The translations under genes were made by a program, and so were the position numbers. The notes beneath the pieces were generated by a model. The model had not been told where the DNA came from. It saw nothing but the letters and a program-made list of their open reading frames with translations, and did no database searches. Shown in pieces: positions 1-4,738 of a stretch of 64,000 nucleotides of DNA; the first letter of the stretch is position 1; the number at the start of each line of letters is the position of its first letter. This DNA comes from Verrucomicrobiota bacterium (GTDB lineage: Bacteria > Verrucomicrobiota > Verrucomicrobiia > Limisphaerales > Palsa-1400). Location: positions 80,345 to 144,344 of the forward strand of contig JBEKYR010000010.1 of the NCBI GenBank assembly GCA_049510745.1, in the 5' to 3' direction.

Positions 1-379
1 CATTGGGCCGGTTGTCGATGAATTTGCCCAGGACTTCCTTGGCCAGCTTGATGCGGCTGAGGCCCTCGCCGAAATCCTCCGAGCGCATGCTGCCGGAGAG
101 GTCGATGGCGACGACGATGTCAATGCCGCTGGCCTTGATGTGGGATTCCCCGCGCACCAGGCGGGGCTGGGCCAGGGCGACAATAAACAACGCCAGCGCC
201 AGCCAGCGCAAATTGGCCAGGATGGCGCCGGCGCGGGATCGGCGCAGCCCGGATATGGGGCGCACCAAATCGATCGACGAATAAACAAAGGAGGCGCTTT
301 GGCCCAGCTTCCCCTTCAGCCACTCCAGCGCCGGCAGCAGAAGCAGCCCTGACAAAACATAAGGATGGGCGAAGGTCAT
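1..379 (-). CDS. BatA-like VWA domain protein (5' part; runs off the window)
   Basis: Manual translation from ATG 379: MTFAHPYVLSGLLLLPALEW...LALALFIVALAQPRL...GIDIVVAIDLSGSM. It has a BatA N-terminus and a MIDAS DxSxS motif, and an ATGA overlap with the upstream stop. Confidence 0.88.
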   Translation of the reverse strand, partial: MTFAHPYVLSGLLLLPALEWLKGKLGQSASFVYSSIDLVRPISGLRRSRAGAILANLRWLALALFIVALAQPRLVRGESHIKASGIDIVVAIDLSGSMRSEDFGEGLSRIKLAKEVLGKFIDNRPN

Positions 380-978
380 GGGGCGGTGGCGGCCGGCATG
401 GCGGCGGCGGGTTGGGTTGGCTGGGGCGTCCAGACAGGTTCGGTTTCGTTGACCAGGCGCAGGGCGGCGTCGTGCAAGGCGCGCAGTCCGATCTCCGCCG
501 GCTCGTATTTGGCGAACTTGATGAGATCGCAACCTTCCAGGAAATCGCCCAGGCTTTGTTTTTGAGCGGCTGTCAATAAATCGGTGCTTTGCAATTCGTA
601 AAGAAACTCCTCCGTCGTGCGTTCGGGCGCGTGGAAATTGAACCGCTCCTCGAGATAGGCCCGGACGGCGTCGGAAACGGCGATGGAAAACGGCTTGGGC
701 TGGCTCAACAGGGAGAGCGCCTGATCGAGGCGGCGGCGCGCCCGCACGTGCGGCGGGACGGGCGGAACGAGCGGGACGGCGGCGGCCTTTTTGCGCCGGT
801 AACGCCACACCAGCCAGGCCGCGGCCAGCGCCGCCAGGAGGGCGGCGATGCAGAAGAACCAAAGCCAGCCGTTGGGAATCTGGATGAGCGGTTTGAGGAC
901 GTCGTGAAAGACCAGCGGAGGCGCGTTGGTGGCGGCGGGCGATTGGGCGGGAATGATGAGAGCGAAATTCGTGTTCAT
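376..978 (-). CDS. MoxR/Bat-operon membrane protein (DUF4381-like)
   Basis: Single TM followed by 'RAYLEERF...ERTTEEFL...DLIKFAK'; lies between DUF58 and BatA genes. Confidence 0.8.
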   Translation of the reverse strand: MNTNFALIIPAQSPAATNAPPLVFHDVLKPLIQIPNGWLWFFCIAALLAALAAAWLVWRYRRKKAAAVPLVPPVPPHVRARRRLDQALSLLSQPKPFSIAVSDAVRAYLEERFNFHAPERTTEEFLYELQSTDLLTAAQKQSLGDFLEGCDLIKFAKYEPAEIGLRALHDAALRLVNETEPVWTPQPTQPAAAMPAATAP

Positions 979-1934
979 GCTCGGCCGTGGCGCCGCCGCT
1001 TTTCGCGCGTTTCGAAGAACCGCCCCAGGGCCGCCGCATACGGTTCGCTGGCCCGCGCCTCGATGGTGTCGATCTTGGCCGAGCGCAACTGGCGGAACAG
1101 CTCGGACTGATGTTTGGCCCGGCGGAGGGCAAAGGCGCGGCGCTTGCGCGCGTCGTGCGTGTTGATCTCGATGGTTTCGCCGGTTTCGGCGTCGCTCAAC
1201 TGCAACCGGCCCAGGGCGGGCAGTTCCAATTCAAAACGATCCACCACCTGGATGGCGATGACATCGTGGCGGCGGTTGGCCTGGCGAAGGGCCGGCAAGG
1301 TGCGCGGACCCAGCGTCGGCGAAACCAGATAGGCCGAGGCGCGGTTGGGATCATTGCGGGCGGCGGCGCCATGCTCGAAGAGGAAATCGGAAATAATCAC
1401 GGCAATGGCGTGGCGGCGGGCCAAACGATTGAGCGCGTCGAGCGCCACGTTGAAATTGGTGCCGCGCCGGCGGGGCTGGAAACAGAGGATTTCGCGAATC
1501 ACGCGCAAGACGTGGCGCCGGCCTTTCCTGGGCGGGATGTATTTTTCCACTTCCTCGGTGAACAGGATCAGGCCGACCTTGTCGTTGTTGCGGATGGCGG
1601 AGAAGGCCAGGACCGAGCCGATCTCGGCCGCCAGCTCGCGTTTGGATTGGTCGCCGGAACCGAAGAGGCCCGACCCGCTCAGATCGACCACGAGCATGAG
1701 GGTCAGTTCGCGTTCCTCGACAAACTTCTTGACGAAGGGATGGTTCATGCGGGCGGTCACGTTCCAGTCGATGGAGCGGACCTCGTCGCCCGGCTGGTAT
1801 TCGCGCACCTCCTCGAAATTCATGCCCTGGCCCTTGAAGACGCTGTGGTACTGCCCGCCCATCGTCTCGCTGACCAGGCGGGTGGTGCGCAGCTCGATCT
1901 GCCGGATTTTCTTGAGGATTTCGCGCGGGATCAT
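975..1934 (-). CDS. DUF58 domain protein (MoxR-associated VWA-like)
   Basis: GQGMNFEEVREYQPGDEVRSIDWNVTAR...VVDLSGS motif; operon context. Confidence 0.93.
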   Translation of the reverse strand: MIPREILKKIRQIELRTTRLVSETMGGQYHSVFKGQGMNFEEVREYQPGDEVRSIDWNVTARMNHPFVKKFVEERELTLMLVVDLSGSGLFGSGDQSKRELAAEIGSVLAFSAIRNNDKVGLILFTEEVEKYIPPRKGRRHVLRVIREILCFQPRRRGTNFNVALDALNRLARRHAIAVIISDFLFEHGAAARNDPNRASAYLVSPTLGPRTLPALRQANRRHDVIAIQVVDRFELELPALGRLQLSDAETGETIEINTHDARKRRAFALRRAKHQSELFRQLRSAKIDTIEARASEPYAAALGRFFETREKRRRHGRA

Positions 1935-1994
1935 GGGGGGAATTGCATGGCTGCAAACTTGCCATCCGTCCGGGTATCAGGTAAAGTTCCTTGC

Positions 1995-2228
1995 ATGAGT
2001 GCGTCGGAAATTCTCGAAGCGGCGAAAGCTCTTCCGCAAGAAGAGCGGATCAAACTTGCGCAAGACTTTTGGGAAATTATCACGGAAGACGGATACGACC
2101 CCGATCTGACGCCGGAACAGGCGGCGGAACTTGATCGCCGTCTCGCTGACTTCGAAGCCAATCCGCACGAAGGAATTCCTTGGGAGCAAGTTAAGGCTGA
2201 ACTCAGCCAGCGTTTCGGTTGGAAATGA
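1995..2228 (+). CDS. Putative addiction module antitoxin (unstable antitoxin type)
   Basis: MSASEILEAAKALPQEERIKLAQDFWE...LTPEQAAELDRRLADFEANPHEGIPWEQVK; ATGA overlap with the downstream toxin. Confidence 0.85.
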   Translation: MSASEILEAAKALPQEERIKLAQDFWEIITEDGYDPDLTPEQAAELDRRLADFEANPHEGIPWEQVKAELSQRFGWK

Positions 2229-2527
2229 GCCGCCGGGACATTTTCAAACGGGCGGCGCGCCTCGAATTCGTTGAGGCTACAGTTTGGTATGAAAAACAGC
2301 GCCCAGGATTGGGGCGGGAGTTCGTCTTGGAGGTCGAGCGCGCGCTGCAACGTGCGCAAGCCAATCCGGAACGTTTCCCAATGGTTCGGCGACAGGCCCG
2401 GAAGATTCGTTTGCGGCGATTTTCTCGTTACAGCATTTATTTCGCCGTCAAAGACGGAGCATTCTCCATTTTGGCGGTTTTTCACGGTTCGCGTGACCCG
2501 GAGGAACTCTGGCGGCGGCTGGGATGA
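2225..2527 (+). CDS. RelE/ParE family toxin
   Basis: AARLEFVEATVWYEKQRPGLGREF...YSIYF...ILAVFHGSRDP, a ParE-type pattern; follows the antitoxin. Confidence 0.85.
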   Translation: MSRRDIFKRAARLEFVEATVWYEKQRPGLGREFVLEVERALQRAQANPERFPMVRRQARKIRLRRFSRYSIYFAVKDGAFSILAVFHGSRDPEELWRRLG

Positions 2528-2607
2528 AAACTTCGCGAGCGCTTCGGCCACAACGTGGTTCGTGTGAATCTCGATCTGCCGGACGTTGTTGGTAATCTCT
2601 TGAGGAA

Positions 2608-2676
2608 TCATGGCTTGGAGAATGCACCTATTGGGTCGTTTCCAAATCGTAGAAATGCCTCACGCATGGACTCCAT
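2608..2676 (-). other. 22-aa coupling mini-ORF between moxR and the bridging ORF
   Basis: MESMREAFLRFGNDPIGAFSKP*; begins 1 nt after the moxR stop and ends in an ATGA overlap at 2611-2608. Confidence 0.45.
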
Positions 2677-2677
2677 C

Positions 2678-3676
2678 TCACGGCACGGGCAGTTCGTTGA
2701 AAATCTTGGTGATGATGGTCTCGCTGCTTTTTTCCTCGGCCTCCGCCTCGTAGGTCACCGTCACCCGGTGGCGCAAGACATCCATCCCGATGCTCTTGAC
2801 ATCCTGCGGCGTGACGTAGCCGCGCCCGCGCAGAAAGGCATAGGCCTTGGCCGCGAGAGTCAAGGCAATGGTGGCGCGGGGCGAGGCGCCGAGTTGAATC
2901 AACCCTTGCAGGCCCGCGATTTTGTAGGCGGCCGGGTCGCGCGTGCAGCAGACCAGATCGACGATGTAATCCTTGACCTTGTCGTCAATATAAATGTCGT
3001 TGAGCACCTGCCGGGCTTCGAGGACTTGCTGGGGAGAGACCACCCGGCCGGGGAAGGCCACGGCGCTGGTGCGGGCCATCAAATCCAGAATCTGCCGCTC
3101 CTCCTGGCGGGACGGGTAAACGATTTTGAGCTTCAACATGAAGCGGTCCACCTGCGCTTCGGGCAGCGGATAGGTGCCCTCCTGTTCGATTGGGTTCTGC
3201 GTCGCCAGGACCAGGAAGGGCTCCTCCAGTTTGAACGTCTGGTCGCCGATGGTGACCTGCTTTTCCTGCATCGCTTCCAGCAACGCGCTTTGCACCTTGG
3301 CGGGCGAGCGGTTGATTTCGTCGGCCAGGATGAGGTTGGCGAAAATGGGGCCGCGCCGGGTGGTAAAAGCGCCGGTCTGCGGATTGTAGATTTGCGTGCC
3401 GATCAAGTCGGCGGGCAGGAGGTCCGGGGTGAATTGGAGCCGGGAAAACTTGACGTCGATGGCGGCGGCCAGAGCCTTGACGGAAAGGGTTTTGGCCAGG
3501 CCGGGAACGCCCTCCAAGAGGACGTGGCCGTTGGCCAGCAAGCCGATGACCAGGCGTTCGACGAGGTAAGTCTGGCCGACGACCACTTTGCCGATTTCGT
3601 TAAAGAGCGGGCGCGCAAAAGCGCTGGCCCGCTGCACTTGCTCGTTCAGGGCGCTGATTCCGGTATTCATAGTCAA
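2678..3676 (-). CDS. moxR: MoxR family AAA+ ATPase
   Basis: HVLLEGVPGLAKT Walker A, LADEINR Walker B, ATQNPIEQEGTYPLPEAQVDRF. Confidence 0.95.
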   Translation of the reverse strand: MTMNTGISALNEQVQRASAFARPLFNEIGKVVVGQTYLVERLVIGLLANGHVLLEGVPGLAKTLSVKALAAAIDVKFSRLQFTPDLLPADLIGTQIYNPQTGAFTTRRGPIFANLILADEINRSPAKVQSALLEAMQEKQVTIGDQTFKLEEPFLVLATQNPIEQEGTYPLPEAQVDRFMLKLKIVYPSRQEERQILDLMARTSAVAFPGRVVSPQQVLEARQVLNDIYIDDKVKDYIVDLVCCTRDPAAYKIAGLQGLIQLGASPRATIALTLAAKAYAFLRGRGYVTPQDVKSIGMDVLRHRVTVTYEAEAEEKSSETIITKIFNELPVP

Positions 3677-3739: not shown

Positions 3740-3874
3740 TCAGGCGCACGTAAAAACAGGAACCGTGATGGCAAGCTGGAATCGTTTCCTGGCCCAAAGC
3801 GCGAAACAGCGGCGGGACTCACCCGGCCAGAAAATGGCGGAAATGACGACGTTGGTGTCAACGACGACGTTCAT
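3740..3874 (-). pseudogene. Truncated PIN-domain toxin
   Basis: Manual translation MNVVVDTNVVISAIFWPGESRRCFALWARKRFQLAITVPVFTCA*. It has the PIN N-terminal VVDTNV motif, stops after 44 aa, and has an ATGA overlap with the AbrB-type gene. Confidence 0.75.
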
Positions 3875-4146
3875 CCCCGCTTCCGCCGTTTTTCGTCGCG
3901 ATATTCGGCGACAACCTCTCGCACCATTTCTTCGTCTTCAGCCGTTTGATAGCGAGTGAGCGATCCGGCGGTGGCGATGACGGCCCGCAGTTCCCGTTCC
4001 GTTGGCTCGGTCAGGGGTGTGACATACAATCCATCTCCGACCTCCGTCACGCGCAGGGTGGCGCCCGGCTTGATTTTCTTTCGTCGGCGGAATTCTTCCG
4101 GCAACTCCACTTGCCCTGTTTGCGAAACACTCACTGTCGTTGTCAT
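3871..4146 (-). CDS. AbrB/MazE/SpoVT family antitoxin
   Basis: VSVSQTGQVELPEEFRRRKKIKPGATLRV swapped-hairpin pattern. Confidence 0.85.
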   Translation of the reverse strand: MTTTVSVSQTGQVELPEEFRRRKKIKPGATLRVTEVGDGLYVTPLTEPTERELRAVIATAGSLTRYQTAEDEEMVREVVAEYRDEKRRKRG

Positions 4147-4176
4147 GGGCAAAGCTTACCTCATGGCTCGCCGGCT

Positions 4177-4527
4177 TTACAGTTCCAAAGTGTGTTTCAA
4201 CGCCGCATCCACGGCTTTCATCCCCGGGAAGTTGCCCAGCACGGAATCAATTTCAGAATCCAGCACCGTCGCCAGATTGTCCGATATGATAACGGAGTCC
4301 AACCGCAGGCCGGTGGTTTTACCGTCCGCAGAATTGACGCCGACAAAAATCCGGCTTGAATGACCGCGCCGGGCAAGGTTGCTCGAAATCATGGCGACGA
4401 TGGTTTGTGTCAAACCGCTGTCGAGGTTGTTCCGCTGAATGACCAACGCGGGACGACGCTTAGCCGCGCGCAGATCGGAATTTGGGAAAAGCACCAGGAC
4501 AACATCACCGCGCCGGGTCTTTGTCAT
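4177..4527 (-). CDS. PemK/MazF family toxin
   Basis: RRGDVVLVLFPNSDLRAAKRRPALVIQ...IVAMISS...TGLRLDSVI. Confidence 0.9.
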   Translation of the reverse strand: MTKTRRGDVVLVLFPNSDLRAAKRRPALVIQRNNLDSGLTQTIVAMISSNLARRGHSSRIFVGVNSADGKTTGLRLDSVIISDNLATVLDSEIDSVLGNFPGMKAVDAALKHTLEL

Positions 4528-4738
4528 AAATGTCGGCTTCAGGTCGTTCCCAATCGTTGGCGAACGTCTTCAATCGCGCGCGCAGTTCGGCGGCTTGAGC
4601 CTCGTCAATTCCCCGCGCCCGCAAGTCAACGCCGCTGGTTTCAAGGAAGGTCACCAGCACGCGTGATTGGTTCACTTGCGGAGGTGTCTCGACGAGTTCC
4701 ACTTTGCCGTTTCTATATGTGCCTTCGACAGTCAGCAT
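4505..4738 (-). CDS. Putative antitoxin of the MazF toxin
   Basis: Small ORF overlapping the toxin start; 'VEGTYRNGKVEL' N-terminus and acidic 'WERPEADIYD' C-terminus. Confidence 0.7.
   Translation of the reverse strand: MLTVEGTYRNGKVELVETPPQVNQSRVLVTFLETSGVDLRARGIDEAQAAELRARLKTFANDWERPEADIYDKDPAR

Follow-up and report, generated by a model that had tools for sequence, protein, structure and literature searches.

Introduction

A 64,000-nucleotide (nt) window from a Verrucomicrobiota bacterium (contig JBEKYR010000010.1 of assembly GCA_049510745.1, positions 80,345 to 144,344) carries, on its minus strand, an operon whose moxR and DUF58 genes are separated by a toxin-antitoxin (TA) cassette lying on the plus strand. 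The strand opposite to this cassette forms a single stop-free open reading frame (ORF), hereafter the bridge, that ends on the DUF58 start codon. Coordinates given below are window positions. Two described arrangements come closest to this one. In noncontiguous operons, of which menE-menC-MW1733-ytkD-MW1731 of Staphylococcus aureus is an example (PMC7154746, PMC11034616), genes on the opposite strand interrupt an operon; an atlas of such operons holds that transcription must persist across the untranslated antisense stretch, and accounts for this by runaway transcription in Firmicutes (PMC11034616). Mycobacterial interspersed repetitive units (MIRUs), in turn, insert at start codons, where an ORF coupled at -4 limits harm to the host gene (PMC12548453).

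The window locus has features of both. As in noncontiguous operons and excludons, opposite-strand genes with their own promoter lie between co-directional operon genes, and the two mRNAs would overlap fully. The main difference concerns the antisense stretch, described as untranslated in those systems and apparently kept translatable here, in a Rho-bearing host; indeed, the stop-free, ATGA-linked sequence argues against an untranslated antisense stretch at this locus. The insert is, in addition, exchangeable cargo. MIRUs provide the nearest functional precedent, being mobile units at a start codon whose -4-coupled ORF delivers ribosomes to the host gene, and an internal ORF with -4 coupling to the gene downstream is likewise found at most TA-bearing junctions of relatives (17 of 23). 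However, MIRUs are short repeats, whereas the present insert is single-copy (the genome holds no second copy of an 870-nt stretch around it, and hence no dispersed repeat), has a promoter of its own and a copy of the host-gene start, and contains a 226-codon frame that runs antisense to two real genes, in a different phase for each.

Other precedents share single aspects. Termination-reinitiation coupling (PMC10666635, PMC6728339) involves ATGA overlaps and a strong dependence on distance, but it is described for functional gene pairs and not as a relay over inverted cargo. Ambigrammatic narnaviruses (PMC6884476) show a conserved lack of reverse-strand stops; their reverse ORF is always codon-aligned, in contrast to the bridge, which is aligned over the toxin gene, staggered over the antitoxin gene and still open. 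Conserved absence of reverse-strand stops also marks the long antisense overlapping genes of Pseudomonas aeruginosa, for which protein-level selection was reported (PMC8850804); the bridge peptide gives no clear sign of it. The host itself is a MoxR-DUF58-VWA "Bat"-type operon (PMC11834572). A literature search, outside which most subscription papers and supplements fell, returned no account of a bacterial operon in which a stop-free antisense relay crosses inverted cargo. The proteins of cargo and host operon are ordinary family members; what is new is their arrangement. The observed chain is real and well supported by comparative sequence evidence, it is related to noncontiguous operons and to MIRU-like coupling, and we propose that selection keeps translation running over the inverted insert, a reading to which we assign a probability of about 0.78.

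A chain of ORFs links moxR to DUF58

The stop codon of moxR (2678..3670, minus strand; AAA+ ATPase, Pfam AAA_3, E 9e-66) marks the beginning of the junction, and 743 nt separate it from the ATG (at 1934) of the VWA-like DUF58 gene (975..1934, minus strand; PF01882). Within this insert lie, on the plus strand, the genes for an antitoxin of 77 amino acids (aa) (1995..2228; PF09720, Pfam E 6.6e-16, with an NCBIfam match to TIGR02574) and for a ParE-family toxin of 100 aa (2225..2527; ParE_toxin PF05016, E 6.7e-7). Both matches exceed the Pfam cut-off and the genes are coupled through an ATGA overlap (2225-2228). The cassette is thus a predicted type II TA pair, PF09720-ParE, with the antitoxin directly upstream of the toxin. 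Its GC content (54.7% for the insert) is below that of the flanking genes (61.6% and 64.1%) and of the genome (60.3%).

On the operon strand, an entry ORF of 22 aa (2608..2676) begins 1 nt past the moxR TGA (2680-2678), and its own TGA overlaps the bridge ATG in an ATGA. The bridge (1931..2611, minus strand; 226 aa) then runs without a stop across both TA genes, and its stop codon overlaps the DUF58 ATG in a further ATGA. Each element of this chain, first proposed in an annotation made from the DNA letters (the first-pass annotation), was recovered at its minus-strand position. Because the TA genes overlap by ATGA, the bridge frame shares the codon register of ParE and is staggered relative to the antitoxin. 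The N-terminus of the bridge is formed by a decayed copy of DUF58 codons 1-26 (2534..2611, minus strand), the sole DUF58-start copy found in the genome; it shows 46% amino-acid identity to the DUF58 start and the DNA common to both includes TCCGGCAGATCGAG. An alternative entry ORF of 17 aa (2628..2681, minus strand) begins at a GTGA overlapping the moxR stop and leaves a 16-nt gap to the bridge ATG. As a peptide, the 22-aa ORF shows no conservation: the closest relative (L011), which has a 33-nt in-frame deletion within the DUF58-start copy, reads this region in the bridge frame.

Taken by itself, the open frame of the window locus is unremarkable. Recoding gives probabilities of an open frame of 0.16 for the antitoxin, 0.31 for ParE and 0.62 for the other codons, hence about 0.03 before phase is considered; the case for more than chance rests on relatives. 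Contigs from two RNA runs (share 0.05) contained relatives' pieces only and left most of ParE uncovered; one of them joins 1934 to 2678, which is the empty-site form of some relative.

Stop codons are avoided in the bridge frame at the junction

We compared 90 distinct loci having both a moxR end and a DUF58 start (duplicates and loci without both were dropped) from a Pedosphaera-like clade of the Limisphaerales, Verrucomicrobiota. In twelve the junction is empty and the moxR stop overlaps the DUF58 start directly at -4; 52 measure at most 100 nt and 32 exceed 250 nt. PF09720 or ParE genes occur in 23 of the 90, and all 59 matches are inverted. A scan of 60 junction ORFs, chosen from 116 cluster representatives of 308 ORFs, revealed sense-direction cargo as well, including DUF4160, DUF2442, UPF0175, DUF3368, VanY, KilA-N and HEAT repeats. 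Cassettes accumulate at the moxR-DUF58 junction in this verrucomicrobial order, which makes it a hot spot. In a phylum sample of 151 genomes, the 29 best DUF58 loci outside the order gave no PF09720/ParE match, and their junctions are mostly short. The junction TA genes are themselves diverged, with median nucleotide distances of 0.46-0.51 and 22 and 28 clusters at 75% identity.

Bridge-frame stops were absent over all 33 antitoxin matches and over 25 of 26 ParE matches, many being present in the other two antisense frames. By hand count, 23 of 24 adjacent TA pairs at the junction are stop-free, against 3 of 37 elsewhere; single PF09720 and ParE genes at other sites, collected by searches and from this genome, are open in 18/53 and 32/88 cases. 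Synonymous codon shuffling predicts 16.6-20.6 stops over the antitoxin genes, where none was observed; over ParE, control codon usage predicts 26.5 and one was observed. The codons concerned are nearly missing from junction ParE genes (TTA/CTA, 1 of 180 Leu codons; TCA, 0 of 109 Ser codons) and are not avoided in the partner antitoxins (24/242 and 12/99, respectively), which tolerate them because they are out of phase with the bridge frame there. The avoidance extends beyond the TA genes: 17 units starting with a DUF58-start copy contain no stop in 828 bridge codons outside these genes, where 24 would be expected. All 17 copy ATGs are in phase with the bridge over all TA genes of their units, no copy contains a stop, and in 15 of the units the final ATGA overlaps the following DUF58 start or copy.

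Individual loci follow the same pattern. Four extra junction loci obtained from the TA searches (L134, L138, L238 and L244) are all open, and wider views of three of them show bridges of 248-475 aa. In a tree subset filtered by length and score, the open genes amount to 28/28 for ParE at the junction vs 12/30 elsewhere, and to 37/37 vs 4/16 for the antitoxin. Two ParE genes nested among those of the junction (L136 and L141, support 0.98) and located elsewhere have acquired two stops each. At L085, by contrast, the toxin gene is broken by internal stops and the bridge is stop-free; this is the only locus with internal stops in TA genes, and a truncated ParE occurs only at L025 (L038 falling outside the check). 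Phase also keeps the bridge open across three tandem antitoxins (L031) and across antitoxins with in-frame internal duplications (L032 and L033), and bridges that include non-TA stretches of 60-174 codons, lying between the DUF58-start copy and the TA genes or flanking them, (L038, L097 and L105) are stop-free too. Stop-creating changes in the bridge number 0 at 17 sites vs 3 at 6.6 control sites, both small numbers. Altogether, these comparisons show that stop avoidance is specific to the junction and to the bridge frame and, judging from the junction genes and their controls, is kept by selection.

It could be argued that GC-rich antisense frames are often open and that one lucky ancestral cassette spread by inheritance. 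About one third of the control genes are indeed open singly, and most junction genes cluster in a single part of the trees. However, synonymous sites are strongly diverged and still stop-free, close relatives away from the junction gain stops, the 828 non-TA codons contain none, and avoidance is confined to the codons that matter in each gene. Chance with inheritance is thus largely refuted, and we give it hardly any weight. The first-pass annotation had held that selection keeps the antisense frame open, and had asked whether different cassettes recur at the junction with DUF58-start copies and ATGA hand-overs. Both points are borne out in relatives: homologous cassettes did not prove to be interrupted by stops, nor were shuffled frames equally open.

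The relay may deliver ribosomes to a gene lacking a Shine-Dalgarno sequence

In the window, DUF58 is preceded by no Shine-Dalgarno (SD)-like motif, and such a motif was found upstream of DUF58 in only 3 of the 90 junctions. In this genome, SD-like words precede uncoupled genes at background level (91/931 and 72/637; background, 357/3357), and -4 is the commonest spacing, found in 218 of 858 close pairs. Coupling by ATGA also links the DUF4381-like gene (376..978, minus strand; Pfam score under the cut-off) to DUF58 and to the next VWA gene (start at 379). The latter, whose VWA motif is visible in the sequence, is presumably batA. Of the TA-bearing junctions, the 17 mentioned above have a last open segment that ends at -4; the others are L010 (via an extended start), L022 (+15), L103 (+4), L032 (-23), L088 (+139) and L107 (running into different cargo). 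The tight relay from moxR to DUF58 is complete in 18 of the 23 junctions, where 8.9 would be expected. Translational coupling is nearly abolished by a distance of about 20 nt (PMC10666635), and Rho loads on untranslated RNA (PMC12548453). The genome contains a rho gene; a second, diverged Rho-like gene (G000:C1:180548-181636) scores 487 bits, slightly under the TIGR00767 cut-off.

These data suggest the following scheme. A self-contained TA cassette (promoter, antitoxin and ParE) would sit inverted between genes that were ancestrally coupled by ATGA, and only versions with a single stop-free frame on the opposite strand would survive at the junction. Ribosomes leaving moxR would re-start on the entry ORF and again on the DUF58-start copy of the cassette, translate a dispensable peptide while crossing the two TA genes and terminate at the true start of DUF58. 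Such a relay would deliver ribosomes to the SD-less DUF58 gene and, at the same time, spare the operon 740 nt of naked RNA for Rho. Translation of the bridge is what we infer from these patterns, with re-initiation and anti-polarity as joint candidates for its benefit.

A variant of this scheme, not exclusive of it, holds that translation does no more than protect from Rho termination or RNA decay, with DUF58 initiating by itself and the ATGA ends arising as a by-product of its ATG-AT start. It would fit the presence of Rho, the many short spacers without a mini-ORF, the bridges ending at +15, +4 or -23, and a weak terminator-like hairpin at 2316-2300 inside the bridge (one of two found, 1.3 expected). 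Yet phase alone would produce an exact -4 end in one junction out of three and not in 17 of 23, stacked units also hand over by ATGA, and DUF58 is SD-less in 87 of 90 junctions. We consider this variant possible, if doubtful.

Several observations weigh against the proposal that selection keeps translation running over the insert. One junction (L025) carries a bridge-frame stop, over ParE, and at L088, which has a distant ParE, the frame stops 139 nt short of DUF58. The tight relay is incomplete in 5 of 23 junctions; L033 and L107 lack a relay even when the rules are loosened, and under such rules chance readily produces one (21/23 seen, 15.5 expected). At this GC content antisense frames are often open, about one third of the control genes singly, and the closing ATGA is in part automatic: DUF58 begins with ATG-AT in most relatives, so that one frame in three would produce it. 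Mini-ORF bridges are hardly more common than expected in short spacers of 17-250 nt (24/38, 19.3 expected); therefore DUF58 does not always depend on the -4 overlap. Bridging is not a genome-wide rule, either: of 40 small inverted genes flanked by co-directional genes, 20 show an open antisense frame, a rate similar to those in other gene contexts (32/61, 17/29 and 12/27), and a relay of at most four steps exists for 4 of 26 small inverted genes of this genome, the window locus included. Finally, the junction cassettes are kin, so that the counts overstate their independence and no exact P value is claimed, and the PF09720 and ParE profiles were built from junction genes.

The bridge peptide looks dispensable

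An alternative explanation for a conserved open frame is that the bridge is a real overlapping gene with a functional protein. The ORF is long and recurrent (35 members in 24 loci cluster by BLAST) and its sequence is present in the ESM Atlas; furthermore, substitutions that affect the bridge alone are seen somewhat less often than those silent in both frames (0.54 vs 0.68 over ParE and 0.37 vs 0.55 over the antitoxin, at few sites). Against this, bridges measure between 172 and 494 aa and contain various inserts and fusions, and the coding score of the bridge is negative. NN/NS values over ParE are alike at the junction (0.089/0.132) and in controls (0.100/0.149), and copy-to-copy differences are mostly nonsynonymous (901 vs 450), the opposite of true DUF58 starts (6936 vs 28787). 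Searches with the bridge and the 22-aa ORF gave no Pfam match, those with the bridge no NCBIfam match, and the ESM Atlas entry nothing informative, its top score of 0.84 being a lead at best. Purifying selection on bridge amino acids was not apparent at the few informative sites. The peptide looks dispensable and unconstrained and a protein-level function is, in our judgement, very improbable; the open frame apparently serves the passage of ribosomes to the next gene and not the making of a useful protein.

The cassette probably carries its own promoter

A promoter-like site, TTGCCA-17-TAAAGT (1959..1987, plus strand), ends 7 nt upstream of the antitoxin ATG. By eye, TTG...TAnnnT at similar spacing precedes nearly all of the 22 antitoxin starts that could be placed in relatives, and TAnnnT peaks 6 nt ahead of ATG genome-wide. 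The TA mRNA is probably leaderless, since this promoter-like site recurs near the ATG and agrees with the genome-wide peak.

The layout might be kept for regulation, the operon mRNA and the TA mRNA silencing each other in the manner of noncontiguous operons and the open frame merely tuning the effect. The transcripts would overlap fully, the promoter motif is conserved, and all 59 junction matches are inverted, the same genes being often in sense orientation elsewhere. However, the common inversion may come from one founder, and the cargo turns over fast, with 52 of 90 junctions at most 100 nt long, which argues that the host needs no such control. Regulation by mutual silencing thus seems rather improbable as the reason for the layout.

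Gene-end copies and entry of the cassette

The first-pass annotation further proposed that the cassette duplicated the resident DUF58 start on entry. This was not supported for the window locus. Over nt 1-60, the window copy is only 68% identical to its own DUF58, which ranks 31st among the 90 true starts, and over nt 37-108 the copy is closest to copies from other genomes. Judging from these identities, it either arrived together with the cassette or long predates the present allele. Fresh duplication events do occur, since 6 of 17 copies match their own host best, with up to 100% identity over the first 60 nt (L116).

Arrays of cassettes have a regular structure. In 5 of 5 arrays the copies of the moxR 3' end are found on the left and the DUF58-start copies on the right, and at L017 an intact empty junction is found in mid-array, between the left and the right cassette. 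Units stack (L034, L085 and L110) because the copy recreates the ATGA entry site. The moxR-end copies and the stacking of cassettes, like the probable leaderless TA promoter, are absent from the first-pass annotation. Such arrays could grow from both ends by recombination, the full neighbouring gene acting as the long arm and the 60-100-nt gene-end copy as the short arm; homologous entry would then add a cassette to the array and not replace it. We lean towards this mode of entry, homologous recombination with a gene and its own end copy as arms, as the somewhat better-founded inference. The competence genes comEC and dprA are present in the genome, but they are common genes and prove little.

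Gene-end duplication is also a classic scar of site-specific integration, which raises the question of whether a recombinase supplied in trans recognizes a site in the DUF58 start and in the moxR end. The genome gives 14 tyrosine-recombinase matches, 10 of them over the cut-off. Nevertheless, the end points of the copies vary (approximately nt 39-82), so that a fixed recombinase site is disfavoured; inspection by eye showed no repeat common to the ends, unrelated genes bear similar scars, and no integrase was found among the 60 junction ORFs scanned (attC sites were not searched for). A trans-acting recombinase is an unlikely agent. More tentatively, and at somewhat less than even odds, the cassette may be a recombinase-free stackable unit, whose gene-end copy serves both as recombination arm and as ribosome re-entry site and whose backward genes have a stop-free reverse frame.

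Related inserts and neighbouring genes

Other small TA-like cassettes in this genome are also flanked by short copies of host gene ends; except for the PF09720-ParE pair on C1, their family labels are assigned by sequence appearance. Most genome-wide matches to duplicated ends proved to be tandem paralogues. Inserts bracketed by 16-33-codon copies of the 3' end of the upstream gene, several of them TA-like by appearance, lie at G000:C4:53700-54590, C22:21500-22270, C23:28780-29730, C14:94190-94640, C18:51560-51680, C29:50760-51370 and C77:2640-4460. The second PF09720-ParE pair (L260, G000:C1:185390-186030) is in sense orientation, is followed by a 16-codon copy of the end of the upstream gene, and has stops in its antisense frames. 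At L262 (G000:C1:277900-280850), decayed start copies separate small sense and inverted cargo, the inverted ones being unbridged. The host gene there we take to be comM-like. PF09720 genes, some with ParE, also follow one gene in sense orientation at six loci (L168, L180, L195, L220, L233 and L234), several within 10 nt of its stop. This site, where the preceding gene is presumably sucC, is another operon hot spot.

A second bridge candidate, an inverted antitoxin-PIN pair before ilvN (L259), was not confirmed, as ilvN has a conserved leader of its own and the sole relative with another inverted pair at this place (L305) lacks a continuous frame. The 285-codon open frame that crosses this pair from a TTGA overlap (L259:1356-2287) is probably due to chance. 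The Val-rich conserved leader peptide and the terminator-like hairpin before ilvN, found in most of 30 family loci, are likely an attenuator.

Next to the operon, between ribF and moxR, lie two further small TA-like pairs, both in sense direction (3740-4738, minus strand). One consists of a 77-aa gene and a PemK/MazF gene (4738-4177), the other of an AbrB/MazE gene and a truncated 44-aa PIN gene (4152-3740).

Implications

Noncontiguous operons pose the problem of how transcription can survive a long antisense stretch that is not translated, and runaway transcription is the solution offered for Firmicutes (PMC11034616). The window locus points to a different one for Rho-dependent bacteria, namely to keep the antisense strand translatable. 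The junction amounts to a remarkably clean natural experiment, comprising dozens of diverged cassettes, empty sites, off-junction relatives with stops and a dead toxin under a living bridge. Should the stackable-unit proposal be true, any number of TA cassettes could plug into a coupled operon without silencing it. As read from these comparisons, selection acts on translation as such, and many of the "hypothetical proteins" annotated at such junctions may be relays, which is a warning for annotation.

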